Positions 8,249 through 32,896 of a stretch of 64,000 nt of DNA are shown one piece after another. Source of the stretch: Marsupella aquatica (lineage: Eukaryota > Plantae > Marchantiophyta); contig OZ316893.1 of assembly GCA_973895155.1 (NCBI GenBank), positions 27,164,110-27,228,109 on the forward strand, written 5' to 3'. The notes beneath the pieces are model-generated. The model did not search any database and was not told where the DNA came from. It saw only the letters and a list, made by a program, of their open reading frames with translations. How positions within the stretch are numbered: the stretch's first letter is position 1; every line of letters begins with the position of its first letter. The position numbers and the translations under genes are program-made.

Positions 8249-11200
8249 TTAGTCAACCTGCTCAAAACCATAGGAGATCACCTCTTCCTCAATGTTCAAA
8301 ATCTCCTCTACTTCTACTTCTTCAGCCTCATAATCTTCCTCCTCGTCGCTGGGCTCACCGTCCCTCAACTCTTGGCGGTAAGGTTTCTCCTCCTCGTGCA
8401 GGGCCTTCCACTGGTTCGTCCAGCTCTTCCATTCATCCATCAATTTCCGCCTATTTTCCAAGTCTTGTGCCCCTTGGTAGTTCGACATTTCCTGATCTTC
8501 GACCTCGTACTTCTTGCTGTATTTTCTCAAGTTCTTGGCAATCTCAGCGTCCTCCTCAGCGCTGAGCAGTGAAGGCGGCCGCGGGCGCCACAAAAACTGC
8601 CAAAAAAACGCACTCAGTACATTTGTAGGTATTCGATGTGCCAGAAGGTTCAAGAAGAACATCTGATACAATGTTTACAATGTCAGTATTTGAAATCAAA
8701 AGTTCTCGGTCAATGTAAGTTCATAGTGTTACCTGGAAAAAACGCTCCCTTGGTAGCCGGTACAAGAGCTTCCCATTGAATGACCAGATGTTGAACCCAT
8801 TTTCCATCTGGTGCACTGAGGTCACGGATGTAGAAACAAATCTGCGCAAATCAAAAGCTTCAGGTCAGTCTAAAATGAAGTTTTCCGTGTAAGCGGAATC
8901 TTGCAAAACGATAGGGGGAAAGAAGACAGAAGCATTTCCATTCCAACCGTGCTACAAAGGCATCAAACCAGAAAGTAACTTGCCTGCCAGTGGGATCCCA
9001 GTCAACATCTGTAGCCATGAAGTGCTCAGCAGTTGCCATGGTCTCCAGCTCGTCGACATTGTAAAACTCAAGCTGTCCATTGTAAGCTTTCAAGCCAGCT
9101 AGAACAATGAATCTGCCAATAGGAGACCAATACAGAGCATTGGCCTGCTTGCCCTTGAGGGTAGTTAGCTTAGTCACCCGCCCAACATTATTAGGACTTC
9201 TCATAGAGTAAAAGCTGATGTCGGGTCGTGGACCGTCCCCATGAATGATCGCGAATCTGTGTCCCTTCGGCTCCCAAGAGAAAGCGACAATCTTGTCATT
9301 CTTGTTCTCAAGTTCTAATACCTCAATTGGGATATCCCTTTCTTTGATATGGAACAACTCGAAACCAGTGTACGTGCTCTTCTTGGTTTTGGTGTAACGA
9401 TCGACCTTGACTGCAAGGTAATCGCCATTGCTTTGCCAGTACATCTTGCAGTCACTAACAGAGAACAGATTTTTCTGCCTGAGCTCTTCCCTGCTTGGGA
9501 TCGAGACTAAACTAACCTGTTACAGATACAAACAGAAAATAAGAACGTTGATTGCAGTGAAGATTGATAGATGGTTACGAGGGTTAGATGAATATCTGCA
9601 CCCAAGACAGGACTTCCTGCAGTTGTGTCAGCGCGTCGAGGCTGAAGGGCCTCTCAATGTGTAATGGCTTACTCAAAACCACTCGTACAAATTCCACATA
9701 CTTCTCTCTCGATGAGATTGAACCAATTCCCGACAAAACTACAATCACGAGGGGAACAAATAAGCAAAAAATCAAAACTACCCTTATCACGATATGAAAT
9801 GCACAGCTTACCCTAGCAGGCTGATTTCCACCACCGCCCTCAGGGACAAAGAGAGACAAGAGAGGGTCTGTAGGAGACCACTGGAAATCAAGAACATTGT
9901 CAACCTTGAGACTCTTCTTCTCAAGTAGCCCCATTGTTTCGGTCTCGTAGACACTGATAGCATTCTTTCCAATTCGAGCGAAGTACTTGTCCTCACGACC
10001 CCCAGCCCATCTGCAAAGTCACGCAAGCATCAGGAGTTGCACAATTTAACCTTGAAATTAATCTCTTGAAAATCTAAATCAAAAACCCTCCACCCCAACA
10101 GTTCAGAATTCCTGTGATCAAGGGCAGATCCAGCAAATAACTTGACTGGAGAAGAAGATGTTCGACAGAAGATTCGAAAGATGCCCCAACATCACAACAG
10201 GATTGGAAACCAACCTAAAGACGGGCCAAGACACTCCTGCCGCACCACCAGTTCCACCTGTGGCAAAATCATCCGCACTTCCCTTGAACTCTCTGAGAAC
10301 CTTTCCACTTCGGACATCAAAGATATTCAAGGTCACCCTCTGCAATGAGATTCACAGTTTAAATCTCAGATACAATTCTCTCCAATGTCAAAACCTCCAT
10401 CACGCCCCGTTCAGTAACAGAGCTCAAATTCATCACTCTCGCAACCATCATCGTGCTAATCAACTCATACTTCCTTTAAAGCCCTAATTTGAAGGAGTGC
10501 CTCGTGACTTCCACCTTCGAGTAAAGTTCAACCGCGTAAGTGAGGAGGACTAAACTAAGTACCTGGGTGTCTCTAGGATTACTGGGTTCGTGACTGCTGT
10601 ACGTGACCATATATTTCTCTCCAGGAGAAAAATCGATCAATTTCACCTGCCGATAATTGCAACGTTAATATCCAACCTCAAAATCGTAAGCCAAAACCTA
10701 GATAACAATTTTGGCCATAATGCTCGGTGCATTGATGCATCACAGATGGGTGTAAATAGACAGTACAGACACTAGAGCCCCGGATTAGTACTTCAGAGCT
10801 TCAATTAACCCTTGCAATGACGATGATTGATTTCCGATCGCTTGACTGATTTAGAGCAGGACAGACGTCTTTCTTTCTTGTCTTGTGAGGTGTTCTCGAA
10901 GCTCACACTGACACACATGCTGACATACATTGTAACAACTGTAGACAAAAACATCAAATAGGTGGGAGAGTGCGCCAAAAATGTAATGCAGACCTGGGGA
11001 TGAATGTATCGCATGAGTCGGTTAAAAGTTTGCGCACCTCCCCACACGGCAGCTCCCTGCCTATGAATAGTAGCCAAGTAGGTACCCAAGGGTGACCACT
11101 GGACAAAGCTTTCCGTCCAAAACTGCATAAAAGAGAACATTGAATCAAGACCCAAACGAAGGGGAAATGGAATCAGCTTGTAGGTATTTCACAAGATCAG

Positions 11201-12755
11201 CAAGATTACCAGAAACACAGGAAATTATCCCATGCAGGGGCACACGTGATGCTCTACAAATGAAAGAAGCCACTGGGTGAGGCCAATATGCAGACAATGC
11301 ACACAGATCCCTCGTCGCTTTACGTTCACCCAGCTCGAACAAAGTCCACGCGCAATTTTGATAAAGAACAGCCATCACTCTTCTGCCTGGCACCCAAAAC
11401 AGAGATCCGAGGACAGAAGGTAACTGCAACCGAAACAAAGAGGCCTAAGTTACCTGGCGCTGGTACACAGGGTCAGGTTTTCCCTGACGATGATCATTCC
11501 AGTACACCTCGGTATCGGATCCGAAACGGACAACGAACTGATCGCGACCACGGTCGTCGGTAAGCCATGCCAGCATATTTTCCTGTCCATAGTATCGAAG
11601 TAATATTGTGCGTCAGAATCGACAACTCTCTCCTCTTGTCAAGCAATGACAACTCTGAACATCGGCAGTTCAAGGCGTAATTGGAGGGAGCTCATTGGAA
11701 ACGAGAGATAACGAGAGACAACCAGACGTGCCACTGGGAGCTGAATATTTGCTTACCCCTGGCGCGTAAGGCTTGCTCTCTGGGGGAACCCATACATCAG
11801 GGACTCTCATGTACTTGTCAAAGTCGTCAAACATGTTCACACCGAACACGTGCGCCTTATCAAGCTTGTAGCCATTGGTCTGCTCTCGGGCAGTCTGAGC
11901 CTCCTGGGGAGTTGTATACTCGATGAAAGCGTAACCTTTCGTTGTCCCATTTCCATCGTCTTCCCTGGGCATCCACAGCCCATGCTCTCGGATGACGCCT
12001 ATCTGACCAAAAATTTTGCGGATAACGCCTTCTAATTTCTCAAACTTCTCCGGTGCCACCACGGGTAGATTGTCCACCACGATGACATTACCAAATCCGG
12101 TGTTCGTCTCCAAGATTTCCTCCTCGAAGTCGTCATCGTCACTGACATCCAGGAAACCCACATCTCAAGCTTGGCACGAGAGCCCAGAACTGACAGAGAG
12201 ACACCCTAATGAAAAAATCGAATGACAGGGGGGTACTGAGAACAGCCAGGGAGGAAACCCTGGATATTGAACGGAAGACACCTCAATAAGTAAAACGAGG
12301 GGATCTACAGAACCAGGGCGGACGAGAGGAACAAATGCAATACGCTAAACAACTGCAGATTGACCGGAGCCACCCAATGGCCAAATCAAGAGGATGTTGA
12401 AATTTCCGTAAGGGGAGGAAAGTAACACCAGGCCACAAACTCCTCGTCGATCTTGGGGAGTCTGTAACGCAGAGGCCACCGACGCCGATCACGACATAAG
12501 CTACCCTCACCTCATCCCAGGACAGAGGGTACGAGCTCAATGGAACACGATGAGAACAAATACCGTAAAAAATAGAAAAACCCTAATTGAACACCTACCT
12601 TACCTCTTGATGCCGAAGTCTTCTCCCTCCGGCACCTCGATGGAATCCAAATCCACCTGCGACCAGTCGATGTTCACTTGCACTCTGGGCTCCTCGCGCA
12701 TGTCCGGGGCGAGGAGATTGTGCGGCGCCACAGGCGCCTCGGCCACATCCGCCAT
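8249..12755 (-). CDS. eIF3b: Eukaryotic translation initiation factor 3 subunit B (RRM + WD40 propeller); exons 12755-12604, 12141-11757, 11582-11454, 11122-10994, 10646-10563, 10339-10215, 10010-9812, 9516-8984, 8841-8733, 8596-8249
   Basis: Motifs: RRM (VIVVDNLPVV..EKFEKL; TKGYAFIEY), WTESFVQWSPLGTYLAT, YWQSNGDYLAVKVDR, WDPTGR, QFLWRPRPPSLL..IAKNLRKYSKKY. All ten exons join in frame using the splice sites I read. Confidence 0.96.
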
Positions 12756-13077
12756 GTTTGCAAAATCTCTTCCTCCTAGGAAGAAAAACTCGGGACGAAA
12801 ATCAGCACTCGACGCAACAGCAGCTGCGGCATAGAAATTCCCGAGTGAAGTCTCTCCCGGACATACGCAAGGAGTCTTCCAGTCCAGAGGTGACTCAATT
12901 TTTCGCACTGTGTCCAGTTGAATGAAATGCTCAATTTGTTCAATTCATGATCAATCTCCACACATTGTACTGAAGGTGTGAGAGCCCTTCTGTTGTAAGG
13001 AATGTAATTGCTTTCGTGCCCGGAGACTGTGTACGAATGAATTGTTGGAACGCTACTCACTCACACTAGAGAAGGCT

Positions 13078-13814: not shown

Positions 13815-14042
13815 TCAAGGAATCCACGTTACACAAGCGGAGCTCACAGCCACCATAGCCACACTCGAGCTTCTCTCTCTCCAAGGCTCAACATCAAAAG
13901 ATGACCTTTTGATGCCTCATAAGGGAGAACTACTCTCCCACACAAACCTAATGGAACCCTATCGGCTCCAATAGCACACATACAAAATGTACATACTCAA
14001 CTAGCACTATATACTACAACAACATCTAGAATGGTGTGACAG
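13815..14042 (-). repeat. Inverted, diverged copy of the inter-LTR segment 21007-21232
   Basis: The reverse complement reads CTGTCACACCATTCTAG...GAGGCATCAAAAGGTCATCTTT...GAGCTCCGCTTGTGTAACGTGGATTCCTTGA, colinear with 21007-21232. Confidence 0.8.
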
Positions 14043-15256: not shown

Positions 15257-16482
15257 TCGCATGGTCTGTAACTTTGTGTCTTTCATGGGCAAAGGTTTAG
15301 GGTGCTACTTCATTGCAACAACATTGGAGCGACCAAGGTTGTGAGCGTTTAAGGAAGTGGGTGTGACCAAGGCTGTTTGAGCTGCGATGCTTGAGCGCCA
15401 ATTCTTGTTCAGTCTCATTCGTGCTAGTTCTTGTTCAGTCTCATTCTTGCTAGTTCTCGTTCAGTCTTGTTCATTGAGAGTTGTAACGCATTGTTCTTTC
15501 TTGGGCGGAGGTGTGTTGCAATACTAGAGCGGGCGACATTGGATGGTCTTGACTCTTCTCAACTGAAGTGCGGGGTTTAGGGTGTCAACTCCTCTCAACT
15601 GATCTTTGGGCGGTGGGGGGTGCGGCTGGTGTTGACTCATCGGTGTGAGAGTCCCATGCAATGCTGTGTGGTGCTTCATTGTGCTTCATAGTGTCTCTTT
15701 GGCACTTCAGGTAGGACTATAAGTGCCATCGTAAGTACTTTGAATTCTCACTGTTATTGTAAAGGGCAACATCGCTCCTCTTGCGATGATCCCCAGCCCC
15801 CTAAGCACTTTAGGGCTTTTCTGTAAGGCCAACCTCTTTATATGCTTCCCATCCTCTGAGGATGATTGAATGTTGGTTCAGTAGAATAGGCTCATAGTTT
15901 GGCTCTCTTGCTCAATTATCTCCTTGTTGTCACTTGCTCTTTGTGTCTCTCTCCAATTTGTTTATACTTTGTTTGTTCATCTTAACTCTCCATCTTCTCT
16001 CTCCTGCTCAATGCTTTCCTCAGCTCTGTTGGTCTCTCTGCCTCTCCTCTCTTCAAGAGTTCACTATTTGGTCGTCCTATTCTCCTCTCTTGCTCAATTC
16101 TCTCCTTTCTCTCTCTCGCTCTGTGTGTCTCACTCCGTCTTGCTCTTCCATCGTCTCCGCTCTCCATTGTCCTCTCTCTTGCACAATTCTCTCTCTCGCT
16201 CCTCAAGTACAAAAATCTCTCCCTCTCGTATGCATGCCCATTGATCACTATAGCAATCTCAGGTCGGGCCGGGATCGAACTTGGATTTCACTATGGAAGT
16301 GTAGATGGGATCATAGTATATTGTTGGCGCTTACATTCTACTTTGGTTGTGAAGCTTCAATTGCTCTAATGCTATACACTAGTATTCTAGTCTATGGAAG
16401 TGTTGTGCAAACTAAGGTGGGGTGCGGGGGGTTTTTCTTTGCCTCTAGTGAGCTGCAATTTCAATTGTAGAGTGCTTATTTT

Positions 16483-17394
16483 CTTCAGGCAGAAATTCCT
16501 GTGCGTCGTTATTTGTATGTGGAGACAGATGAGACAGCACGGAGGGTCTCATTGCGACATGTGGCTATGTTGGTGGATAGATATCCACAATTGCTGCTAG
16601 TGGATGTTGTTTGTGGTTATCAGCATGCACTACCTGTTGATATTTCATTGTTGGGGGCGGATCATCTACATCGTGTTGGCCCCATTGATTTGGTGATTGC
16701 TGGTTGACCATGTCAGGGCCAATCTAGAGCTGGCGTTGGGCATGGACTTCATGATCCACGCTCTGCATTATTTTGGGAGATGTTATGGGTGCTGCGTCAT
16801 CTCTAGCTACATCAGACACAGTCTCCAACATACATTTTGGAGAATGTGCCATTGTTAGGTGATGATCGTAGTCGGATTGTTGCCAGTGTTCACCAGGTGA
16901 GGTCTTGGATTGGACCTGCTATGTTATTGGATACTACATGTGTGGATTCTCGTGCACATCGTCCACGCTTGTGGTGGACTAATTTGATCCCATGTGAGGT
17001 GCTGAAGCGCGCATTTGACAGCATTCCACGCTCACCCGCCTTAGTGGTGGATGCTATTTTGGATCTAGGGCGTCGTGCATAGGGTGTGACCCAACCTGAT
17101 AGACCTCCATTGGCAATGGTCAATGCAGTTGGGCGCCCACGTTGTGCATTACCCACTCTTGTAAGCCACTCTACTTCATATGCATTCAGAGCAGGTGGCC
17201 CTGGACTTGTGTGGGACACAGCTCTCCAGCAGTTAGTGGAACCTACTGCTGATGAGAGAGAGCGTGCTATGGGATTTTTGACTGGCACCACTGTAGTTGC
17301 CTCTGTGTCAGAGGGTTTGCGGCGCCAGGTTCTTGGTCAAGCAATGGATCTGAATTGTTTGACTTGGATTATCAGCTTGGGAGTAGCTGAATAG
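16483..17394 (+). pseudogene. DNMT3-like C5 cytosine DNA methyltransferase domain inside the gypsy pol frame
   Basis: One reading frame gives VRRYLYVETD (motif II), DIS (III), PIDLVIAG*PCQGQSRAG (IV, catalytic PC at 16708-16713), DPRSALFWE (V), YILENVP (VI), AHRPRLWWTNL (VIII), ERERAMGF (IX) and LGQAMD (X). Motif I (FxGxG) was not found and appears lost with the truncation. Confidence 0.88.
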
Positions 17395-20300
17395 TTGCGG
17401 ATGCGCTCTGCTGGAATTACTGATTGTCCCTTGGTGAGCTTGCGGTCCACTGAGACAGTACTGACCACAGTTGGGGGCGAGCAGATAGTCCATGGACCTA
17501 TGGCAGGATTGGCCAAGGCTGGACAGATTGTTGAGCAGGAAGGGACTGCTCAATCTACTACTAAATAGCAATCATTGGCTATCTCTTCTACCCTACAAAG
17601 AGATATTAGGGATTTGGTGGAGAGTTGGGAACCATAGCTTGGCCTTAAGTTGACAGGGGAGGAGAGACGTTGCATGCATCGATTCCCGAAGAGTTACTGG
17701 AATTGTTTTGCATTTAGCATGAAGGATTTGGGGACATTAAAGGGTCCTGGTATTCAGATTGAATTGGCTAGTGATGCGCCAATCTTTCGTAGGCCATATC
17801 ATTACAGTGACATGGAAAAGAGCTTTGATTCAAAGCATAACTCAAGATTTGTTGGAGGCTGGATTGGTGGAGATTTCATATGGGGAGTATGCATCTACCA
17901 CAGTGATGCCAGCCAAGAAGGATGTGCATGGCAATTACACAGATAGGCGCATGTGTGGTGATTACAAACCCATTAATCGCCAGACAAAATCTGATAGATA
18001 TGCCATGCCCACACCTGAGGAGATCTTTGATGCTGTGGGACATGCAAAGGTTTTCAGTTCATTGGATCTGAGGGTAGGGTACCATCAGCTTCCAATTAGG
18101 CATGCTGACTGGTCCAAGATAGTATTCTGGGGGATTGATTCTTATGGCAAAGATCGTTTGTATCAGTGGTATTCTTACCATTTGGGTTGAAGAATGCACC
18201 AGCTGAGTTCCAGAGAGTCATGGATCGAATCCTTGTAGGTTTGGATTTTGTCAGATGTTATATTGATGATATTTTGGTTTATTCTTCTATTGTGGAAGAA
18301 CATCAGCAGCACTTGTAGATTGTGTTGGAGAGATTGAGAGCACATGGGTTGAAGCTCCATCCTAGCAAGTGTAAGTTCTTCCAAGACCAAATTGAGTATT
18401 TGGGCCACGCTATATACCCAGGGGGATTGGGTGTACAGCAGACTAAAGTGGAGGCCATTACACAGATTCCTTGTCCTACTGATGTGAGTAGAGTTCATGC
18501 ATTCTTGGGATTGGCGAGCTACTAAAGGAGGTATGTTAAAGGATTTAGCCAGCTTGCTAAACCTTTGACCATACTCACTAAGTTGGATCAGGAATGGATT
18601 TGGGATGATGACCAAGAGCATGCCTTTCAGGAGTTGAAGCAAAGGTTGGCACCATCCCCTATTTTGAGAAGACCCATTTCAGGCAGACCATTTCAACTAC
18701 ACACTGATTGGAGTGGAGTAGGACTTGGAGCAGTGCTGACTCAGAAGGATGATGAGGGGAATGAGTTTGTTGTGGCTTATGCCAGTAGATCAAACAATTC
18801 AGCAGAGGCTAAGTATAGCTCTTATGAGGGAGAGTGTTTGGCAGCAGTGACTGTGGGCTGTTGCACATTTTCGTTGCTACTTGTTTGGTAACCCCTTCAC
18901 CTTGATCATTGATCATCAACCTCTTAAGTGGTTAATGGAGTTTGACAAGCTTACAGGGAAGCTTGCACGATGGGCGTTGTTACAGGAGTATGATTTCCAG
19001 GTGGTGCATAGGCCTGGAAAAGTGAACTTGGATGCAGATGGATTAAACCGCAATCCATGTACCAGTCAGCAAGATGAGACTGGAGCCAGATGGCATGATG
19101 AGTCAGATAAGGAGATGGTGCCAGGATGGCATGCATCTGCCTTTCTTTGTTGGGTGCCAGCATATAGTGGATCCGTGGACTCTACCTCATTGGATGGAGT
19201 GAATGAGGAGTCTTCAGATGTGGATGTTGGTGAGGTAACTTCTGGACAACAAGATATTCACAATGATGTGAGAGTGTTGGAATATCTGCGTAGTGGTTCT
19301 ATTGTTGGCAGTGTTGATGCCAAAGAACGTGACAGGGTCCTACAGAGAGCCAAGAGGTTTCGATGGGAGGGAAACCATCTTTTGAGAGTATTGCATGATG
19401 GTAGGGTGTTGGTGGTACCAAAACCATCACAACAAGTACATTTGGTGCGACATGCACACGAGGAGTTGGGGCACTTTGGTGTGAAGCACACTTATAGCTT
19501 GCTACAGACACAGTATTGGTGGCATGGTATGCACATTCATGTCCAGCAGTTGATAGCTAAGTGTGTGGTATGTGATAGAGTGAGAGCATCATTTAATGCT
19601 CCCACTCCCCAGTTGCACCCGTTGCCGATCATGGGTTTGGGATATCATTGGAGTTTGGATTTTGCTGGTCCATTACCTCTTACCCAACGTCATAATCGGT
19701 ATGTTTTGGTCATGGTGGAGCACTTCTCCAAATGGATTGAGCTAGTGGGATTACCCGATAAAGCTAGTGGAGGAGTTGCTACTACATTTTTGGATTGTGT
19801 ACTCAGTCATTTTGGAGCACCAGCTGAGGTGTTGACTGATCAGGGAACTGAGTTCCGTGGAGAGTTTGAGAGTTTGTGTGAACAAGCTCTGATTGATCAT
19901 CGTACTACCTCTCGTGATCATCCTGAGGCAGATGGATTAGCTGAGAGAGTTGTGCAAACTGTGAAGAGAGGATTGCGTAAGTATGGCTTGCAGGTTAGTC
20001 ATTTGGGAGATTGAGATCTCGAGCTACATTGGTTAGCTATGGGCTACCATTTCAGTCGGCAAGCATCACTTGCATCCTTCTCACCTTACTTTTTGCTCTA
20101 TGGTAGAGAGCTAGATTTGCCAGCAGCTATTCGTCGTGATGCTGCACCAGTTGTGAACTTGGATGATCTTGATGTTTGGATCAAGGTGTGTTCAGAGAGA
20201 GCACGGGTATTTCAGAGAGTGATGCCCATGGATTTTGACAACCTTGCCATTGCCCAACATCATGATACTTTGAGGTATGCCACTATTCGTGGAGGAGGTT

Positions 20301-20554
20301 ACCGTGCAAGCATTCGACAATTTCATCCTGGTGATTATGTTTATTTGCAGCAGACAGCACCCACAACACTTGATGTGACCGCAGGCCAGACAATCTTACG
20401 TGTCCGTGAAGTGTTGCCTTCTGGTGTCTTGATGTTGGAGGGACGCGATGGTATGGTTTGGAAGGATCATGTGCGCAATTGTGCACCATGTCACCTTCCC
20501 AACATTGATGGTACAGTAGAGCCAAGCTTGGCACATGTTCGTGTTGGCTTGAAA

Positions 20555-20694
20555 TGTATATTGTGTGGATTTGCTCAGGGAGCAGCTACTATGTTGATTT
20601 GTGATAAGTGTTCTTGAGGATGGCACATGTCGTGTTTGACACCACCATGCAGGTGATTCCTAGTGGATCATGGTTGTGTCCTCAGTGTCGGTGA
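20555..20694 (+). pseudogene. PHD finger at the C-terminus of the gypsy integrase
   Basis: CILC..MLICDKCS*GWHMSCLTPP, then after a 1-nt frameshift QVIPSGSWLCPQCR*. This is the C4-H-C3 pattern with the conserved Trp. Confidence 0.85.
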
Positions 20695-20869
20695 AGCCGA
20701 CTAGTTATCATTTGTGTTCTCTTGGCAGATATGGATTGCAGGTAGGTGATCAATGGGGCTCACTTGCACCCGGCCCCCTGATCTTCACACCTAAAAAGGT
20801 GTATATCAACCTTGTAGAACTCACGGCTAGCTAGAGTTAGGGGACCTTACTCCCAGCTAGGGGGGCAAT

Positions 20870-21005
20870 TGTGGGTTTTGGACATGTGTGGACATGAGTT
20901 CCACTTTTATTCCATTCTCTTGTGTTTGTGATTTGGCAGTGTGACTATGTCTGGATGTATGTGACAAGCGATGTATGTTGTGTAGCGATGTGTATGCGCA
21001 CGACA
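20870..21005 (+). repeat. Short LTR (136 bp, TGT...ACA) of the methyltransferase-carrying gypsy element
   Basis: Follows the PPT, starts TGTGGGTTTTGG and ends GCGCACGACA. A near-identical second copy lies at 21338-21473. Confidence 0.85.
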
Positions 21006-21337
21006 GCTGTCACACCATTCTAGGTAGTGTTAGAGTGTATCGTACTATCTAGATCCGTATGTTTGGTATGTGTGCTCTATGAGCCAATAAGGTTCCGTCC
21101 GGTTTGTGTGAGAGGGTACTTCTCACTTGTGAGGCATTGAAAGGTCATCTTTCAATGTTGAGGCTTGGAGAGAGAGGAGCTTGAGTGGCTATGGTGGCTA
21201 TGAGCTCCGCTTGTGTAACGTGCATTCCTTGAGTAGTGCAAGGTGCATTGGCTTGACATACGTGTGTGATCGGATTGGTGCGAGATCGATGGGGTATTGT
21301 TGACCGGGATCGTTGTGCCGATTGTTGAGGAGATTAT

Positions 21338-21473
21338 TGTGGGTTTTGGACATGTGTGGACATGAGTTCCACTTTTATTCCATTCTCTTGTGTTTGTGAT
21401 GTGGCAGTGTGACTATGTCTGGATGTATGTGACAAGCAATGTATGTTGTGTAGTGATGTGTATGCGCACGACA
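21338..21473 (+). repeat. Second copy of the 136-bp LTR
   Basis: Direct repeat of 20870-21005 with only a few substitutions. Confidence 0.85.
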
Positions 21474-21632
21474 ACATCCATATAGTGAGACCCCTAAGTG
21501 TTTTCCCTAGCTCTTTTGGCTTCCACCATGGCAAACAAGAATTTTGATGGCTCATCCCCCTATCCAAGCTAATTAATCCTAGCAATACTCTTATTATGAT
21601 GAGCTTCTTCTAGTTCCCTTTCTCTTACATTC

Positions 21633-24600
21633 TGTGACGTCGCCGGTACGGTGGCTAATAAATGATTCGGCCTAACCACGCTTAACACGCGCAGTAGAGG
21701 TATCTTAGGCCGTAATTATTAGCATAACGACAGTATTTAGGTAGCCATTATGAGTAGAAAATCATTAGTCAATAAGGGGCATTCATGTTCGGGCTGGTGG
21801 CGGGTTGCCATTCGCATGCCCGGGTTGCGAGCGTGTAATGGGCCCTCCCCTTTCCCCCTCGGGTCTGTATAACAAACTTTGGGAGGTGGCCACTGACACG
21901 CGCTGACCCAGACTGGTGGAGTGGCCGGTACACTGCAAGCGTGAAAGGCTCGGCATATAAGCGATGAGGAAGCGACGGGCGATCAATGAGCTCTCAGGGT
22001 ATAAAAAGGGGGTCGATCCTTTGCAGTGCACCAATTCTTCAGTCCACGCGCCAGCTTCGACCCTAGTTCTCTCGCTTATCTTTAGTCGCCTTCCATCTCC
22101 TTTGAATGTCGCACACGATCCTTTCCAGTTTGGCCATATGATTCTGGACGCAGTTCCTGTCTATTGGAGGGCACTTGGCCGACTCGTTGAAACACGCCAA
22201 CCCGTGACAATACGAGATTGAACGCGAGTACAAGAGAGCCATCCGCCTAGCAGGCCTCCATCACTATCTCCTTAACTTTGATTACCCGTCCCAGAGCGAG
22301 CTTTACCAACCCGAAGAAATATCAGGGTACTTCTTCAACGGAGGCAAATATATCGGCTTCTGGGAGACATTGCTTTGGCTCCCGGACAAGGTCTTCAATA
22401 TCCCGGGCACGATCGACTTACAACGGCACCACTTTGACCATATCCCCGCTCGGGTCCAAGACATCATCAACAGCAAGTCCAGTGCTACCCGATCTACAAG
22501 GGCGTCTACACTTGCATCAGAAAACCTCTACCGGCACCTACAAAATTTCATGGCAACTACACCATCGATCACCGGTGCCAGCCCAGCCATGCTCGTACCC
22601 GCACCAGTCCAGGCTCAGGCTCAGTCTCAGCCTCAACCTCAACCTCAACCTAGCCGATCCCCACCGCCGGTCGCCCCGCCAGTACAAGTACACTTCGTCG
22701 TCAACGTTGTGGACCTCAACGACGATGAAGACGATACCTTGCCCCTGCTCAGGCAGCCTAGAGGAGCAAGCACCCAGGGAGCCGGCACTACATTGGCCCT
22801 TCCCCAGACCCGGACTCGAGTAGCAGCTCCAGCGGATAACACGGTGACCGTAGCCTCCCCGGCCCCAATACTAACGGCGGTGGCACTACCCATACCCGAT
22901 TGGGAGGATGGGGAGGTGTCACCCTCCCCAAGCCATCACGGGAGCCAATCTCGGGGAAAGAAGAGGAAGGAACCCGCAGCTGTATCCGGGCTACCCATGG
23001 CCACGGTAGCCGCGGCCAAGGTAACAATGCACCGCATGGGGGAAAACGTGCATAAGAACATCCTCCACCCAAACATGCGGTGTACTTGAAGACTCGGGGG
23101 TTCGAGCACCTCGCCTCTCTCCCCTGGAACACCTACAGATACTATAGGGAGGACATGACAAAGTTCATCAAGAATTATGACGACGTCCGTCAACATACTC
23201 GGCTGCGGGGAAGGAATATGTCCCTCATAGAGGAGCGGCTCAAGATGATCTTTGGGCTACCCGAGGGCGATCACCGAGTCGAATCACGGGCTCTCGGGGG
23301 CAAGGGAGCCAAGTACCAATCATTGAGTTTTCCCTCTGAGGGGTCAGTGGACAACGGGTTCGTGATGAGGACCTGCCTCATCCTCGAGATAGCTGAGCGG
23401 CTGGAGTTCCAGAGGTATGCCCTCCACATGATGGAACCCCGGGGCGAGATCTCCGCTGCCCAGGTTATCTAGGTTGAGACCTATCAACCTAGGAAGTGGG
23501 CTTTGTACTTCGCTAAGAAGTTCCATGAAGAGATGGAGCGGAAAAGGAAGTCGCTATACATCGGCAGGAAGACGTATTTCGCGAGCCACATCGAGATCAT
23601 TCTCGAGTGGTACACCCGGTTTGATCAACAAACCCTTCCCCAGGTCAACGTAACTAAGTTGGTCCCGACTAAGTGGATCTTCCCGGCCTTGGAGAGACGG
23701 CCTCAACCCGAGGCCCAAAGTTTGGCGGCAACGCAAGCCCCACCCATCCAACCTCCACAGGTAGCGATAGTCATGGCCGAAGAAGTACCAGAAGAGGCAG
23801 TGATCGCAACCTTAGACGCGATCAACCAGGTCAGGCCTGGTGCAGAAGTCGGGGCGGTGGAGGCCTTGCCCGAGCCTGAGGGTCCAGAAGACCCACTAGT
23901 GGCTATTCCACAGGACAGGCCGATGGTGGAGGAGGACACTCCAACCCCTTCCAACACTACATCCCCAGGGCTGGATGTCACTACCCCGGCTCCCACGCGA
24001 GTTAACGTCTGCCCGTGCCCAACTCCAGACGGGCATAACCTGGACCACTCGGAACTCTTCGTACCGGGTACATTTCTAAATGGGCTTTTGGGAGATTTCT
24101 CCCAACAAATAGCCTGGGATACCGAGGAGTCCATGGCTCGGAAGGTAGCCTACTTCTTCAATCAAGAGTTGGTTACCGCAGTAAAGGCAGATCAGGCTCA
24201 ATCGGAGGCCCTTCAGCGGATAGAGCGGTACTGGGTTGAGTCCGTGTACCTAAAGGATGAAGTTGCGGCTCAAGAGGCGGAGCTTCTGCAACTACGACCC
24301 AAGGTTGCAGCCGCCGATGAGTTGTTAGCAAATGCGCATGCCCTTACCGCCTTAGCCGAATAGGCCAAAGCCGGGAAGGAGGCCAAGATTGCACGGCTTC
24401 GGACCCAGGTTGACGTACAATTTGAAGAACCAAACTGTCATCTGGCACAAAGACCTAGAGGAGGCCAAAGAGCGGGCCCAGCGTGACACTGCAGAGATTG
24501 CCACTTTGCAGGCCGAAGTGGCATGGCTTCAAGCCGAAGCCGAGAAACAGACCCAGGTGGTGGATAAGCTGAAGAGCAACGCCCAGCAACTGGAAGAGGC

Positions 24601-25639
24601 ATACCAGGAGGCAGCTGAGGAGACGGACGCGGCAAAGCAAGAAAATGAATCTCTGCTGGACCAAGTCCAGCTCCTCAAGGCGGCAACGATAGACTCCGTA
24701 GGCAACGGGATGGCTGCTCCCACTCGGACGGCTCTGGCAAGCGCACCAGATATTAGCGGAGGGTTAGGCTTAAAATACACTTAGGAGTAGCTAAAACAGG
24801 CTGGTAGGACAAGTGCCGGCCAAAAGATAGCGGCGCTGACACATTAGCCAGCCTGTGTAGAATAGGTTAGACTAATAGGACAAGCAGGCACCAGCTTAGC
24901 AAGGATATAAGTTAGCGTAGATTCTGGCACGAGGCCAGATCGGTCCTCAGCCCTTAGTATTTTGCGGCCCCCCAGTAGAGGTTAGGGAAGGGGAATTTTA
25001 GACTCAGAGGTTGGCCATTCGCAGTACGCGCGGGGAGTCCCAAACTCGGTGAAGTATCGGAGTGCCAAGAGGAGGGTATACGACTAAGCTCGTTGGGCAA
25101 GTGCGGAGCTGGGCTCCGTTGTAGTGTATACTCCTTGGCCTTGGGCCCGTTCGTTCATGAGGTGTCGGGTCAACCAATCGTAAAGTGTATGATCATAAAT
25201 GAATGAAATCCTTTCTCCTTAATTCCTTCGTGTAAATCAAGATTTTTGTTATGTATGAATGCATGTATGAGTCTCGTGTGCAAGTATCAACGTCGGGCCG
25301 AACACGTTATGCCAACCGTGCACGGGGTGCCGGATACGGGTATGGGGTTGCGAGCCCGGGTTGAGCCCTTGTACTAATGGATCCGGATCGAAGGCGATAA
25401 CATGAAGGCTTAGAAGTCTGTGAGCCGGGATCGACCCCATGTCGACTAAGGTACGTTCCGGCAGCGGAACACAAACTATACCTAGGAGGTGTCTATACAT
25501 AATAGTAAGCGCACTTAGCGCTAGTTTACGTGAGTTAGGAGCATTCTATGCGTCCCTCCCTACCCGAACCCTCATATTTATGAAAATTGTGCCTGTCTAA
25601 GCCAAAGCCCGGGGTAAGGCCTAGGCAGACGACGTGACA
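21633..25639 (+). mobile_element. About 4.0-kb solo LTR-like insertion containing a long degenerate ORF
   Basis: Termini TGTGACGTCG...CGACGTGACA form a 9/10 inverted match. The flanks CATTC and CATTT are a 5-bp TSD with one mismatch. LINE ORF2 sequence resumes on both sides. TATA-like TATAAAAAGGGG at about 22000. Confidence 0.8.
22106..24784 (+). pseudogene. Degenerate ~890-codon ORF of unknown function inside the solo LTR (Pro/Gln-rich segments, C-terminal coiled coil)
   Basis: The ATG at 22106 is in frame with ORF 22370-23089 across two TGA codons. ORFs 23080-23472 and 23503-24363 share a frame across a TAG. Frameshifts lie near 23080 and about 24430. The tail EIATLQAEVAWLQAEAEKQTQVVDKLKSNAQQLEE is heptad-like. 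Confidence 0.7.
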
Positions 25640-28000
25640 CATTTTGTTCAGTGAGGTGAAATCTTGAATTGTGTCTTCAAAATAATCTTCCATGATAGCA
25701 ATCTTCAAAAGAAAAAGTTTAGTCCTTAGCCTAATCATCTCTTCATCCTAGGGTACCGGGGAGTATTGGAGTTCCATGTAGCACCGTCAAAGTCTTTGGA
25801 CAACATCTGCAAATCTCAAATGAGGATCAATCGATCCACCACTTCCAACTTTCCAAGCTTCTGGCAATGAATTGATATTTGCTTTGTTCCTAAGAATAGC
25901 CAAGTTTGCCTTGAAGTAGTTAGCTCTACGTACATCTATAGCAGTAGTGCTTCAAGGAGTCATCCAAAAGAGATAATGATAGGTCCATGATCCGATAGAG
26001 CTGAGGATCCATCGTGTTTGAGGTCCATCACCTCCGCCATCCATTGCCCCTTTTCACTTAGGTAAAAGCAGTCTAATCGGGACTGAACCAATTTGCCATT
26101 TCTTACCATTCGCCATGTGAAATGTGATCCGGTAACCTGTCCCAAAATTTTTGGGCATCTTGTAAGTTGAATCATAGTTTTGGTAAATGCCAAATGTCTA
26201 GCTTCCTTCCACGAATTTTGGGAAATAGGCTAGTAGAATCTTCTTGTTTTTCCGTCATATTAAAGTCACCACTTATTATTCATTTCCCCTGGGTAAAGTG
26301 TTCAGCAAATCATTCCACAATAGGGTACGTTCACTCATTGAGTTAGGTGCATAGATGCTAATCAATCCATATATTTCATTATCTGATTGTAATGTAATCC
26401 AAACATCTTGTTCTTTATCTAGAATGTGTTAGACTCTACCCATTGACCGGACCAACCGGTCACCCGGCACACCTATATGTACCATGACCCTACTCATTCT
26501 ATTGACAGTTACTATTCATTATCCTATCATACGTTATCAGCACGACTCACCCAGCTTAGAGCACAGGAGAGCGAAAAGCTATGGCAGGAGAGAGAAGAGA
26601 AATACCAATGACAGAAAAAAGGGAGCACCGAGCCAGGTCCGTCAAAGTTGGCTCACCAAGGAGATGTCCAGTTTTTATCCTCCGACAATGAATTTCAGGA
26701 ACTGAGGAAGGTGAATTAAGATTGAGGTGACTGGATTAAATTCATTATGAAGATTCAAAGCAATTTGTTACAATCACGGACTCTCCACTGTCCAACTCGA
26801 GATTCGGTTATCCAGGGCGATGTACAAAGAGTTTGCTGGTGAAATGAGAAATCTACAACAAAGTTATCATTCTACCGCATATGGAGAGTCACCAATGGAC
26901 AGACTCTTTCAATCAGACTGCAGACCATCAGAAGACGATTCCTCCCAAGAACCAATCAATCAAACAGAAGAAACGATCAATCAATCGAGTTTGAGAGCAA
27001 ATCGAGTTTGTAAGCAATTGAGAAGTAGACTCAAAACATAGAAGAAGTAGACCTATTGAAACAAGAACCAGAGAACGCGGCTCAGATGGACGAAGATACG
27101 CAAATAGAGAGGAAATTGACCACTCAAGCAAAATTGAACCAGATATCCGGATGACATTGAGCTTTTCCTCATCGGAGTGTAGCTCGTGAGATCAACAATT
27201 GATAAGGACATAGAGAACACAAAGAACAAGAGAGCAGAAAAGAAAGGATCGGTTAGACAAGGGATCCGAGGCTGCTTGATGAGAAGGATCCCTATGCATA
27301 TTTCGTTGTTGAAAAGGGCTGCATGAACAAAACTTGAGATCTTGTCGAAGAAGACTGAGAGAAATAGAAGCAGATAGGAAGCAAATTGCAAATAGAAGCA
27401 CAAAAAGCAAGTTGAAGAATCGAAGGAGAGCCAATTGACCGAGATTCGAAACAACACCTGAAGGACGAGGTAAGGAGGCGAGAACGGGGCTGTTCGAAGG
27501 GAAAGAACAACATTGCTGAACACCCATTGACAAAATGTCGAGATAAAGCCCCTAACCACTTCACCCTCCTTAAGTGCAAATTTCAACAAGGCAATCTTGT
27601 TTTCCGTGTATTCATGTGCACTTAACAACTTAAGTGCATCCCTTCATAACTGCACACCATAAAAAGGAAACTTAACTTACAAAGCCGCACGTGCACTTAA
27701 CCAGGGTATGAGTAACTAATCACCCATAATTGCACAAACTGAAAAAATCCATTACTGCACAATATAACAAAGGAAACAACACATACAAAGAAAACTTTGC
27801 AATTAACCAAATAACAAGGAAAACCTAAATCCTAAGTGCAAACCCTAAAACTGAATTCCAAATTTGCATGCTCTCTGCACCAAGTCCCACTTTGCATGCC
27901 GCATAAATGTGCTTTGTCGACTTTTACTTATGGCTATTACTCTATAAGCCCTAATTACTATCAAAAACGAGCTTAGAAAATAGTGCCATAGCAACCCTAA

Positions 28001-31000
28001 ATGGCCAACCTGGAGAAATTGACTTTCCCACCTTTAGAAATTGATGGTAACAATTACCTCGAGTGGTCCATGAACCTCAAGGAGAACCTGACCTCTTTAA
28101 CCCTACTCCCAGCTATAGGGATAGCTCAACCCATACTAGACCCGTTAACCAAGGTCAATGAATCAAAGGCCCTAGTATTTCTCCGACGTCATATCCATAG
28201 GTTCTTGCAAAGACAATACATGCACCTAACCACCCCTCGCAAGCTATGGACAACGCTTAAGACCCGATTTGACCACCAGAAATTGGTCGAACTACATAGA
28301 GCCCACCAAGAATGGCTAAACTTACGGGTCCAGGATTTTACATCCATCTCAACCTACAATAGTGAGCTATTCAGAATCACCTCAACCCTTGCACTCTGTG
28401 GCGAGCCAGTCATAGACAAGGACTTGCTAGAAAAAACCTTGTCCACGTTCCACTCTTCAAACGTACTACTATCAACCCAGTACCGGAATATGAAGTTCGG
28501 ACAATACTCAGAGCTCATCGCCCACCTCCTAGTAACAGAAAGGAACCAAGAGCTCCTTTTAGTTAACTCTAGGAAACGTCCTACGAGCACACTACCCCCA
28601 AGACCAGAGAGAGAAACCCATCACATCGACAACGCTGGACCCTCTCATCAAGGCAGGATGACAAGCGCGCCAAGAATGGTAATAGGAGAAACACCCTCAA
28701 CAGGGGAGTTTCTTCAACCAACACCAACAACGCGGCGCCTTTCGACGGGCCTTTTGAGGTTGCCCAAACGGGCACCCACAACAACAGAGTTTTTGAAACA
28801 ACTTCACACACGGCCGAGGACGCGGACAAGGTCGAAGGAGATACCAGAATGACCGCCAAAGTGATCGGCCTCAACCTCGACCACAGCGAGAATGACCAAG
28901 ATGCCACGAATGTGGCATGACCAACCATCTGGACCGCAACTATAGGATTCCACAATACCTTAGAGATTTATACCAACAATCCCTACAAGATGGCCAAAAC
29001 CCTAGGGCACCACCCCGTGAGACCCACGGGGCGTTTATGGAATCCAGAGACTTATTTCAAGATTTTTCAGACACACCTACGCAACTTGAGGCACATTTAG
29101 TGGCGAGTAGCTCCACAACCCCAGACCTAAATAGTCCTAGCACATGCATTATTGGTAGCACGACTACTCATACTATCCTTCGAGATAGAACTCTTTTCCA
29201 CAAGATCACACCTTCAAGTAGATCACTGACCACTATCAATGGTCCTAGCCAGATAGAAGAGGGCTTTGGCCCAACTTCTATTTGACTTCCATAGGGTACA
29301 GAAATCCAGATAGAATCAGCTATTTTTGCCCCGAATGCAACCCGTAATGTCCTAAGCTTTAGGGATATACGAGCAAATGGACTCCACGTCCAAATAGAGG
29401 ATACAAAAGATCATGAAGTAATCTATTTGGTTGAAAATACCCCTATGGGGAAAATCATTAAAGAGACTCTTTTCTCGTACCCATGCGGGTTTTACGTAAC
29501 TCAAATTGAATGTTTGCATAACAATGCACAACCAAGTGAATTGCCCACGCTTTGGCATGCACGCCTTGGCCACCCTGGCAAACTAATAACAAGGCCCACG
29601 ACATCAAAATTGCCAACCAAGATACCAAAATTCTTGGACATCATACATGCGGATGTCTGCGGGCCAATTAACCCACCGAGCGAACCATTCTGCTACTTTA
29701 TGGTATTGATCGATGCATCAACCAAATGGTCAAATGTGACCTTGCTTTCGACGCGGAACATGGTTATGCCTCGCATCTTGGCGCAAATCTTGCGCGTGAA
29801 CGCACAATTTCCCGATCACCCCATTAAGACACTAAGGGTGGACAATGCAGGGGAATTCACATCTGAAACATTTTGACGATTTCTGGACACCACTAGGTAT
29901 CGATGTACAGTATCTTGTACCCCATGTGCATTTCCAGAATGGATTAGCTGAAGCTGTCATTAAACACCTTCAGCTAATTGCACACCCACTACTAATGCAA
30001 TCAAAACTCCCCGTCTCACCATGGGGACATGCCATATTACAGGCTAACGCATTAATTCAATACCGCCCATCAGCTTTTAATACTTATAGCCCATACCAAA
30101 TTGCTAACGGTATCAAACCCGATCTATCCCACCTTTGTTCATTTGGATGTCAAGTGATGGTCCCCATTACTCCACCCAAACGAACCAAGATGGGACCCCA
30201 ACGACAGTTGGGGATATACATCGAATTTGACTCACCGTCCATAATCAGATATATGGAGCCTACAACAGGCGACGTTTTTAAAGTCAATTTTTTAGATTGC
30301 CATTTTGATGAGCATATTTATCCACCATTAATAACCCCTGAACACCCACTACCACCTTTGGAGTGGGAGAGACATTCGTCATTTTGGCAAGACCTTAGAA
30401 CAAATCAGGGGGAGAAAGAAGTTCAACGAATTTTGCAACTCCACAAGATTGTGGAAGAATTTCCCGACACTTTTGTCGATACATCACAAGTTACCCACTC
30501 ACATATTCCAGCTGCGAGAGCATCCGCTCGCATCGAATTATCAAGAGAGCCAGCAAGTACATCCCAACCTCGTGCCAAACATGGCAGACCCTTGGGATCA
30601 AAAGATAAACAACCAAGAAGGCATGGTTCATCTATCCCTCCTTCACCTGACGTAGATCATACTGACTCCATAACTCATGAAGAGATCTCTATCCACTACG
30701 CACACACCGGTGCGATGTGGGATGGAATTACTACTTCAATAGATGATGCTTTTGCATTAATGGTGGCAACACATATCAATGATGATACACTTGAACCAAT
30801 TTCCATATTAGAATGCCAAAACAGACCAGATTGGCCTGAATGGCAAAAAGCTATCAATGGCAAATTAGATTTCCTACTAAGCAGACATACTTTTGGCCCA
30901 GTTGAGCCAACACCAAGAGACGTACACCTCATTGGCTACAAGTGGACCTTTGTCCGCAAAAAAATTGATAAAGGCCAGGTTGTACGCTACAAAGCACGTC

Positions 31001-32540
31001 TGGTAGGGAAAGGATTCACCCAACAATCGAGAATCCATTATGATGAAATTTACTCACTGGTTATGGACAGCACAACATTTCGATACCTTATCGGATTTGT
31101 CATTTTCCATAAACTTAAGATGCGACAACTGGATGTCGCAACCGCATATCTATATGGAACTTTAGACACTTGTCTATACATGCGATCACCTCCCAAGTTG
31201 GAGGAACGTCGTCAAGCTTTAGCTCAAGGCGCTACATTGCATATTCCATATTTACATAAGATTATCAACCGAACACATCAAGTTACACCTCATATGTCAT
31301 CTACACATGTAACTCATCAAAATGATACCCCTGTGTCAGCCATACGGCATACTCGCTATCTGCGTGTTGAAGGCATTATATGGCCTGAAACAAAGTGGCA
31401 GAGTATGACATCAAAGATTCACTGATGAGATGATTTCCATGAGTTTTTCCCGTGATGTAATTACTCCATGTTTATTTATTAAACATGTGGATGATGAATA
31501 TGTCATCGTCTCTATTTATGTTGACGACTTAAACATATTTGGGACACCCCAAATTACAAAAGATACTATTACCCATCTCAAAACAACATTTGAGATGAAA
31601 GACCTTGGTCATACAAACTTTTGTTTAGGTTTACAATTGGAGATCTTGCCTACTGGCATGATGCTCCATCAGACAACACAAACTGAAAAGATCCTAAAAC
31701 AGTTCAATATGAACTTAGCACACCCATTAACGTCTCCAATGGTGGTACGTTCATTAGAAAACACTACTGATATTTTTCGTAAGCGCAAAGAACACAAACC
31801 ACTATTAGTACCGGAAACTCCATATCTTTCTGCGATAGGAGCATTAATGTATTTAGCAAATCAGACCCGACCAGACATTGCATTTGCAGTTAACTTACTA
31901 GCTAGGCACAGTGCAACTCTCACAGCCAGACACTGGAACGGAGTTAAGCACGTATTTAGGTACCTGCGTGGCACCACTGATACCGGGTTATTTTACCCAT
32001 TCGGTGCAAACCACGAACTCACAAGATATGCGGATGCCGGATATCTTTCCGACATTGACACCGCAAAATCCCAAATCGGATATATTTTTACTATAGGGGG
32101 TACCACTTTTTCTTGGAAAAGCGTGAAACAGACCCTAACAGCAACCTCATCGAATCACTCAGAGATTTTAGCTCTACATGAGGCTAGTCGCGAAGCCGTT
32201 TGGTTATGATTTTTTATAAATCACATCAATACTAAATGCGGCCTACCAACACTAACGAAGCCTACTAATATCTTTGAATGAGGATAACGCAGCATGTATA
32301 CAACAGATCACGAAAGGATTCATCAAAGGCGATCGAGTGAAGCACATAGCTCCAAAGTTCTTCTACATCCATGAGTTATATGGAACAAAGATCAACATTT
32401 TACAGATTTTAAGTGCAGACAACTGTGCAGATCTCTTCACCAAATCACTATCGCCGGTCATTCATCACCGACACTGCCAGGCGATTGGACTACGGAGCGT
32501 ACGATGCATGATGACCATGAAGGATGCTGCTACACCATGA
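28001..32540 (+). pseudogene. Copia gag-pol polyprotein, frameshifted and with stops
   Basis: Gag MANLEKLTFPPLEIDGNNYLEW; protease-like CIIGSTTTHTIL; integrase WHARLGHP, IHADVCGP, RVDNAGEF, QNGLAE; RT YKARLVGKGFTQ, QLDVATAYLYG, IYVDDL; RNase H YADAGY, EDNAAC, DNCADLFTK. Confidence 0.93.
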
Positions 32541-32751
32541 CTGATGATACTGACGACTTACTGTTGAGACAAATGTTGAAACTAGATTTACTATAGCATC
32601 TGACTTTATATAATATTGATACTTATTACGATGAGGACTGTTAGGGTGCACTCTTTTTCCTTTAGCACTCAAACTTTTTCTCTGCTACACCTGTAGAGTT
32701 TTTATTTAACTAGAGTTGATAAAGGTTTTTTAACGAGGTAGTCTACCTCAC

Positions 32752-32896
32752 TTGTACTCATATCATGTATACTCTATTAACATGGTATGATAGGTCTAGT
32801 CTATATTGTCTACATAGTTGTCAATTGTACTCATATCATGTATACTCTATTAACATGGTATGATAGGTCTAGTCTATATTGTCTACATAGTTGTCA
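32752..32896 (+). repeat. Two-copy 73-bp tandem duplication just upstream of the copia PPT
   Basis: TTGTACTCATATCATG...CTACATAGTTGTCA starts at 32752 and again at 32825. Confidence 0.9.

Follow-up and report, generated by a model that had tools for sequence, protein, structure and literature searches.

Since 2018 it has been asked why a transposon should keep the enzyme that hosts use to silence it, and the question is still open because the known cases lie in algae that are genetically hard to handle and the only Gypsy enzyme put to the test showed no signal. A stretch of 64,000 nucleotides from the liverwort Marsupella aquatica (contig OZ316893.1, positions 27,164,110 to 27,228,109), analysed at its full length and called the window here, raises the same question for a land plant. 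Positions 16481-21473 hold a 5'-truncated, dead copy of a high-copy Ty3/gypsy retrotransposon family with a DNMT3-type C5 cytosine methyltransferase domain (all coordinates are positions within the window and lie on the forward strand unless stated otherwise). Gypsy-borne DNMT3 is already known from Klebsormidium. Judged from sequence, the present family would add to this its occurrence in land plants, a dosing of the enzyme on the Gag side of a likely leaky stop codon, and a life cycle with split ends.

A single frame extends from 16471 to about 17820, passing through methyltransferase motifs IV to X into the N-terminal part of the reverse transcriptase (RT) without a shift. All motifs that an earlier note on this DNA had named were found in it: motif IV at 16702-16722 (DLVIAG*PCQG, with a stop at 16705 and the catalytic cysteine at 16711), motif VI at 16840 (ENV), motif VIII at 16957 (HRPRLWWTN), motif IX at 17254 (ERERAMGF) and motif X at 17332 (LGQAMD). 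The segment 17626-17826 aligns to a Marchantia RT, and the first frameshift lies at about 17820. The methyltransferase domain itself occupies 16481-17390, its start being cut inside motif I. With X at its six stops, the frame from 16471 to 17640 matches the Pfam model DNA_methylase with an E-value of 1.4e-8 and 35 bits (cut-off 22), a check that the note had proposed. Gag, protease and most of motif I are not in this copy, nor were they found elsewhere within the 64-kb window, and alignments with relatives start no earlier than about 16474-16483. In other copies the sequence extends beyond 16481 in the upstream direction, into an apparent motif I (14, 23 and 3 contigs in three of four runs), and the window copy is therefore cut there, dead and truncated as the note had described it. 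The DNA upstream of the break (15500-16480) is a different repeat of lower depth. In appearance, the junction at about 16480 resembles a splice acceptor, with pyrimidines followed by CAG.

The methyltransferase had been likened to both DNMT3 and DRM enzymes; the first half of this comparison holds. The best sequence matches of the window domain in the PDB are DNMT3A, 3C and 3B. A profile built from 22 members of the family reaches E-values of 1e-19 to 1e-25 with DNMT3A/B/C (1e-25 with DNMT3A), 2e-14 to 2e-11 with DRM2, and 1e-9 or weaker with DNMT2 and bacterial enzymes such as HhaI. For structural comparison, the stop-free domain of a related locus, L011, was modelled with AlphaFold (predicted local distance difference test score, pLDDT, 90). 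The model superimposes end to end on DNMT3A (Z 27.6, root-mean-square deviation 2.6 A over 263 residues), followed by DNMT3B (Z 27.2), M.MpeI (24.2) and DNMT1 (18.5). A DRM origin was rejected: the alignment of the model with DRM2 is limited to residues 1-134, and the motif order is not permuted. By profile and predicted fold, the methyltransferase is thus an unpermuted DNMT3-type enzyme with motifs I-X in ordinary order. It is intronless, motifs I, IV, VI, VIII, IX and X are kept family-wide, and the catalytic cysteine is present in 36 of the 37 loci read in frame, a count that leaves out the frameshifted loci L041 and L042. Several algal-type copies with open frames (L035, L038 and L040) have WEC instead of WPC in motif IV.

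Is the enzyme part of the element? Protein searches, each scoring about 8000 candidates, returned 57 longer matches and 401 of similar length, 120 of which were listed; a further set comprised 1914 representatives at E 0.001 (150 listed), which will include ordinary DNMTs, plus 48 loci. Named hosts among the matches listed are Calypogeia, Marchantia (15 proteins), two Sphagnum species, Closterium, Klebsormidium and Haematococcus. No vascular plant is named among the 57 longer matches or the 120 listed of the 401, which at about 8000 candidates scored does not amount to absence. Scans of viral contigs and a first metagenome scan with a single-protein query returned no relatives. All long loci of the close type share one order, namely gag, zinc knuckle, protease, methyltransferase, RT, RNase H, integrase and, in part, a PHD finger, as read in L005, L006, L008, L011, L017, L022 and L032. 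The methyltransferase domain of L011 shares 90% identity with a Sphagnum protein, and loci of its type are therefore likely peat-moss DNA. In runs from two organisms, the methyltransferase is covered by thousands of contigs, at the same density as RT and integrase; the summed contig depth on the element is about 1e5, depth not being a copy number, and one of the runs, X1, may share its source with the window and is thus not independent.

The window, P0002 and sequences from Calypogeia, Marchantia and Sphagnum form one group of 17 rows with a support of 100 (SH-aLRT, Shimodaira-Hasegawa-like approximate likelihood ratio test) in a tree that took in 52 of 99 rows, is unrooted and leaves deep branches unresolved. 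The trees exclude fragments shorter than 200 aa (DNMT) or 130 aa (RT), and the DNMT tree holds no host DNMT3. Distances in the DNMT and RT trees correlate closely for the 16 elements with DNMT before RT (Mantel 0.97) and less so for all 72 (0.62), which indicates co-inheritance and not function because kin share both domains. The ratio of nonsynonymous to synonymous substitution rates (dN/dS) between the window and its relatives, a comparison likewise proposed in the note, is 0.12-0.18 for the methyltransferase (21 of 22 pairs, one being saturated), 0.04-0.12 for RT (15 of 19) and 0.06-0.13 for integrase (7 of 10), values that are weakened by a dS near saturation and by the mutual dependence of the pairs. 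They are also higher among young copies (0.45-0.52, with RT and integrase alike at 0.31-0.58), which is ascribed to decay after insertion. On these ratios the methyltransferase is under purifying selection, and the shared order, the selection and the matching trees bear out the view that it is no neighbouring gene: it is part of the element, conserved in liverwort and moss relatives.

The same methyltransferase also occurs in a second, larger Ty3 group, where it lies between RNase H and integrase (RT-RH-DNMT-INT-PHD; P0031-P0052, L035, L038, L040 and others). Among 315 proteins, 98 have this order, 54 have DNMT before RT, and 163 are uninformative; one partial match of the second group comes from the chlorophyte Haematococcus. 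The two orders are largely separate in the DNMT and RT trees, so that DNMT either moved once or was captured twice. The RT-RH-DNMT-INT-PHD order was not found in the literature examined, as far as its available text goes. A polyprotein of this family, P0040, is filed in a bacterial metagenome bin and probably represents algal DNA there. A distant GC-rich relative, L043 (with L044), assembles as a circle of about 11.9 kb whose ends overlap by 133 nt and which has a single CA-GC-TG junction; this could be a real circle or a collapsed repeat. In the L043/L044 type, the methyltransferase lies in the pol frame with RT and is overlapped by an open reading frame 1 (ORF1) of 2027 codons.

Where, then, does the enzyme stand within the polyprotein? 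The note had read the stops in the methyltransferase-RT frame as decay throughout, several TAG codons probably replacing CAG. For five of them this is correct. The stops at 16705, 16804 and 17080 within the methyltransferase domain, at 17392 in the tail that follows it and at 17635 in RT are private to this copy, since 93-100% of the depth differs there in two runs. No such difference is recorded for the TAG at 17566, though the places flanking it on either side are covered. In 23 of 25 DNMT-RT linkers, or 20 of 22 after merging of re-assemblies, the RT anchor is preceded at a distance of 17-24 codons by a stop (19 TAG and 4 TAA); the linkers without it are those of L020, which is decayed, and L043, which is distant. 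In 22 of the 23, CAR follows directly, and the full CARYYA is found in six (the window, where TAG and CAATCA occupy 17566-17574, and L006, L022, L023, L029 and L030). In L022 the element consists of two open frames of 1369 codons (protease and methyltransferase) and 1047 codons (RT, RNase H, integrase and PHD finger), which are in the same frame and separated only by the conserved stop.

The segment upstream of this stop, 17391-17565, forms the C-terminal tail of the gag-protease-DNMT frame and aligns to the end of P0002, a protein of 79% identity whose end falls at the same place. Many database proteins terminate there, and 35 consequently read as gag-PR-DNMT or PR-DNMT alone (PR, protease). 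No stop separates methyltransferase and RT in the Klebsormidium protein P0422 and several others. In plant viruses, UAG-CAR-YYA serves as the type I readthrough motif (PMC3542737), and readthrough between gag and pol is a rare but known retrotransposon layout (PMC3441728). With the type I (tobamovirus) signal the family shares the in-frame stop, the CAR(YYA) context and the position between two frames (PMC3542737); the difference from the known layout is that the stop lies 3' of protease and methyltransferase instead of between gag and pol (PMC3441728). The stop at 17566 is therefore no mark of decay and likely a signal for readthrough, its leakiness being a prediction. Thus, the enzyme does belong to the element and shares its frame as the note had held, but a conserved stop parts gag-PR-DNMT from RT-RH-INT-PHD. 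It follows that the methyltransferase closes the Gag-protease frame and would be produced in the same amounts as Gag, whereas RT and integrase would need readthrough.

Downstream of the stop, the window copy retains RT (17575-18438, YIDD at 18259, frameshifts at about 17820 and 18170, stops at 17635 and 18316), RNase H (18553-18997, frameshift at about 18850), an H2C2 zinc finger with a DDE (rve) integrase and its C-terminal extension (19412-20500, stop at 20012), and a PHD finger (20555-20688) that is broken by a stop at 20615 and a frameshift at about 20647 and is intact in relatives.

The ends of the element are equally unusual. On the right, the window copy shows a repeat B (20868-21005), two bases (21006-21007), a repeat A (21008-21335) and a second B (21336-21473) that is 98% identical to the first. 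Both B copies end in CA, A starts with TGTCA, and the two-base spacer thus lies in a CA-NN-TG junction, likely representing joined integrase attachment sites. A polypurine tract (20859-20867) immediately precedes the first B, and the same motif stands before B in eight related loci. The end of the second B is the right end of the element: differing flanks follow it in 23, 16 and 2 contigs of three runs, and B forms the right end in eight loci, the window included. One contig of run X1 joins the flank 21474-21494 to another A start (21008), which may reflect a second insertion about 25 bases away in the sample of that run. At the left, all six relatives begin with the A start, TGTCA, and B stands neither before nor after this A. 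Two like long terminal repeats (LTRs) are absent, the left end being A and the right end B or B-A-B. It was rejected that B-A-B is a single LTR with an inner repeat, as none of the six left ends has B. Target duplications of 4 bp flank all three relatives for which both ends were available (two exact, one matching at three of four bases), so that the relatives have the TG...CA ends and the 4-6 bp duplication characteristic of Ty3/gypsy elements; the window copy is truncated.

Two forms of the family occur. A-coding-B-A-B is represented by the window, whose own 5' A is lost, and by L016 and L041; L011, in which the 5' A and the 3' B-A are seen, and L022 reach B-A at the contig end. A-coding-B is found in L008, L017, L019, L020 and L032, and in L019 and L020, which carry internal deletions, the remaining internal sequence abuts the B start exactly. 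The junction of B with A reads CA-NN-TG in all five cases compared and also in L043. The A2|B2 joint of the long form corresponds, in both subfamilies, to a blunt join of the two predicted cDNA ends. No tRNA-type primer site follows the 5' A in the relatives examined. Instead, the 11 bases after the 5' A pair at 10 of 11 places with A positions 167-169 in three of six loci (background 2 of 1139 words), and this pairing site lies about 35 bases after a TATA-like motif. In the host family, six contigs depart from A at 21325, and the different sequence that follows pairs 12/12 with window positions 21147-21158, the 3' arm of a hairpin within A and a likely self-primer. The A-start and B-end termini, the 4-bp duplications, the polypurine tract before B, the CA-NN-TG junction and the apparent self-priming together point to integration at an internal circle junction.

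With moderate confidence, we read the family as one with a DNMT3-tailed gag-protease ORF1 ending at a likely leaky stop, an enzyme packed in bulk that methylates the cDNA, and integration through a circle junction. Transcription would begin in A and finish in the second A. The transcript would probably prime itself just after the 5' A, as in Tf1 and Tcn1, and the polypurine tract would start the plus strand at B; self-priming would set the right cDNA end at the A end and the polypurine tract the left end at the B start, giving (B-A)-coding-(B-A), in which each B-A unit has the CA and TG attachment sites joined at its centre. We consider it reasonably probable that the cDNA ends are then joined, as in a two-LTR circle, and that integrase uses the B|A junction, a two-repeat circle yielding A-coding-B-A-B and a one-repeat circle or linear form yielding A-coding-B; use of both inner junctions could likewise give the latter. 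IS3-type transposases use circle junctions. The form seen in the window would be able to replicate again, and A-coding-B would be a dead end because it lacks the second A. Readthrough would very likely yield many Gag-PR-DNMT chains per full polyprotein, from which the protease would free many methyltransferase molecules beside naked cDNA inside the particle. On balance we slightly favour that the freed enzyme methylates this cDNA, mostly at CG, and that a new copy arrives pre-marked like host chromatin. The window copy would then have been silenced by the host and have decayed after insertion.

Two patterns of base composition bear on this. CpG in the coding region stands at an observed/expected ratio of 0.35 (0.26-0.44) compared with 0.68-0.73 in three other elements of the window, a contrast of one copy with three elements of unknown age that could have other causes; the depletion is compatible with CG methylation in each cycle and does not prove it. 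Furthermore, 24 of 26 copy-private changes are cytosine deaminations, at 14 of 127 CHG, 4 of 68 CG and 6 of 428 CHH sites, and by this pattern the decay after insertion looks like host silencing.

Several observations weigh against the scheme of bulk-packed enzyme and circle-junction integration. CpG depletion is uneven among relatives (0.28 in L006, 0.58 in L011, 0.55 in L022). Loci of the peat-moss type carry CAACCY, mostly CAACCC, after the stop and not CARYYA, and 4 of the 23 linker stops are TAA instead of TAG. Self-priming is weaker or fails in three of six loci, two with deletions in A pairing 9/11 elsewhere and one being rearranged, and the window copy has no clear TATA box at the expected place. 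The short A-coding-B forms could stem from recombination between B copies after insertion. The enzyme of KnitGypsy-Dnmt3, the Gypsy element of Klebsormidium nitens, showed no activity in yeast, a result that the authors of that study called inconclusive; human DNMT3B failed there as well (PMC5890265). Finally, we infer catalysis, packing into particles, readthrough and circles from sequence.

The enzyme of the same element might instead enter the nucleus and act mainly in trans or after integration, on the insertion site, other copies or host loci, serving self-restraint or the suppression of competitors or defence genes. Expression at Gag level would supply far more enzyme than one cDNA requires, the PHD finger accompanying the integrase points to chromatin targeting, and the moss host enzyme DNMT3b methylates CG and CHH de novo in heterochromatin (PMC6453930). 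However, linkage to Gag would put the enzyme in the particle beside naked cDNA, and the CpG depletion that the coding region has inherited agrees with an action on the element itself; neither argument settles the matter, and we regard action in trans as unlikely. It appears quite improbable that the domain is kept for a non-catalytic job, such as nucleic-acid binding or shielding of the cDNA or circle junction, or that it methylates RNA. The lack of activity of the Klebsormidium enzyme in yeast and the changed residue before the catalytic cysteine in some algal relatives would agree with a loss of catalysis, but the family-wide retention of the motifs and of the cysteine argues for an active enzyme, as does the methylation of CG by DIRS-borne Dnmt3 enzymes in yeast (PMC5890265), and the fold is closest to the DNA-acting DNMT3 and not to DNMT2.

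As to integration, ordinary linear cDNA could be inserted by an unusual strand transfer, with short forms arising by later recombination of B copies and no circle at all. DDE integrases of Ty3 elements normally act on linear ends, the B-A unit begins with TG after the polypurine tract and ends with CA in the peat-moss type, and the circle is itself a deduced intermediate. Nevertheless, this route appears rather unlikely, as no left end starts with B and no right end lies at A, the duplications flank the A start and the B end, and the internal deletions join precisely at the B start. That the methyltransferase is an isolated piece of a host DNMT3 or DRM gene beside a retrotransposon is a possibility to which we give practically no weight. 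The truncation of the window copy, and nothing else, speaks in its favour; contig coverage, shared locus order and selection exclude it. The order recurs in liverworts, mosses and algae without introns, and host DNMT3 has an extra domain and DRM is permuted (PMC6453930).

Beyond this insertion, the reverse strand carries a 228-bp fragment of the A repeat at 13815-14042, which begins at the A start, is 82% identical and belongs to a related subfamily. Another high-depth repeat follows about 150 bases past the element (21630-24800) with ORFs at 22208-23086, 23056-23469, 23473-24360 and 24356-24781, two of which were tested and have no Pfam match. A decayed Ty1/copia element with gag and RT pieces lies at 26426-33023, flanked by direct repeats of 97-109 bp, and an open frame of 1086 codons for a non-LTR-type reverse transcriptase at 59692-62949 on the reverse strand. 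Host genes in the window include a single-exon SWIB/BAF60 gene (2356-4092, reverse strand), which is 89% identical to that of Calypogeia fissa, 75-76% to those of Marchantia paleacea and Riccia and at most 71% to those of other named plants, leaving aside an outlier of low identity in second rank. These identities point to a leafy (jungermanniid) liverwort as the likely host. An intron-rich gene at about 8250-12760 (reverse strand) matches Pfam eIF2A and is presumably eIF3b-like, and 49482-51830 encodes a fusion of TenA and a phosphatase. No tRNA genes were found in the window.

As the element occurs in Marchantia, Calypogeia and Sphagnum, the question of why a transposon keeps this enzyme can be put to the test in a model plant for which methylation mutants exist. 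Possible mechanisms are constrained by the conserved stop, as the enzyme would be dosed with the capsid and not with RT, and the split termini suggest a retroviral-type integrase acting on a circle junction. LTR finders that require two like LTRs would miss the family. Public gene models of Marchantia, Calypogeia and Sphagnum (P0004, P0005, P0007 and 11 more from Marchantia; P0003; P0347 and P0390) represent ORF1 or pieces of such elements, and some carry the label DNA (cytosine-5)-methyltransferase; the several Marchantia ORF1s annotated as hypothetical proteins or methyltransferases bear on counts of plant DNMT3 genes. More tentatively, and with considerable doubt, these elements may form an unrecognised Ty3 branch at least as old as land plants that combines self-priming, two integrase attachment sites kept joined within a permuted terminal repeat, DDE circle integration and, in bryophytes, a captured DNMT3 moved to the Gag side, at hundreds per particle, which would deliver pre-methylated copies; at high copy number they would contribute de novo methylation to liverworts and mosses that has not been reckoned with.

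We found no report of a Gypsy-DNMT3 in a land plant, nor anything relevant on such termini or such a stop, in the literature searched; closed journals and supplementary trees may hold one. Marchantia is not mentioned in the available text of PMC5890265 or in three supplements searched, and a 2025 paper (PMC12344493) says only 'streptophytes', citing the 2018 work. The methyltransferase-bearing retrotransposons of Klebsormidium and dinoflagellates mentioned in the earlier note are indeed described in PMC5890265. Among the latter, SymbioDIRS-Dnmt3 has split repeats and a Dnmt3 that methylates CG de novo in yeast. SymbioDIRS-Dnmt3 and SymbioLINE-Dnmt share with the present family a retroelement-borne C5 methyltransferase, but use a tyrosine recombinase or a LINE endonuclease instead of a DDE integrase with 4-bp duplications (PMC5890265); membership in DIRS/Ngaro was rejected on the rve integrase and these duplications. 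The DAM-LTRs and EpiLTRs (Fernandez-Moreno 2026, bioRxiv 10.64898/2026.05.21.726589) are likewise Ty3 elements with DNA methyltransferases and a chromatin reader; they differ in having an adenine methyltransferase, a DNMT4-related enzyme and a chromodomain, and the preprint sets them apart from 'streptophyte Gypsy-DNMT3', citing only the 2018 work. Self-priming is known for Tf1/Sushi elements and predicted for Tcn1 of mosses and club mosses (Neumann 2019, PMC6317226). These chromoviruses are Ty3 elements as well, but have a chromodomain and ordinary LTRs, whereas the open pol frame of L022 has a PHD finger and no Chromo match; the available text of that survey mentions neither methyltransferase nor PHD nor Marchantia. 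Gypsy-7a_cRei and REM1 of Chlamydomonas are green-lineage Ty3 elements with a PHD finger and LTRs made of subparts; the figure legend shows no methyltransferase for Gypsy-7a_cRei, and its LTRs differ by only 8 bp (PMC9940879).

The closest known system is KnitGypsy-Dnmt3, in which a Dnmt3 lies in the Pol ORF of a Gypsy element with DIRS-like repeats under purifying selection, and for which methylation of the cDNA was proposed (de Mendoza 2018, PMC5890265). The K. nitens protein KFL_000540020 (P0422), presumably one of the copies described there, is homologous (40% identity over 64% of the methyltransferase domain) and likewise has the methyltransferase before RT, the tree being unrooted with deep branches unresolved. 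Both families are Ty3/gypsy elements with an intronless, unpermuted DNMT3-like domain, an A-coding-B-A-B arrangement and purifying selection (PMC5890265). Readthrough, self-priming, A-coding-B forms and junction integration do not appear in the portion of that text examined. The family described here differs in its land-plant host and in that its methyltransferase closes ORF1 before the stop instead of lying within the Pol ORF (PMC5890265). As enzyme and RT do not form one uninterrupted ORF, we regard it as a related variant and not as a member of the KnitGypsy-Dnmt3 family.

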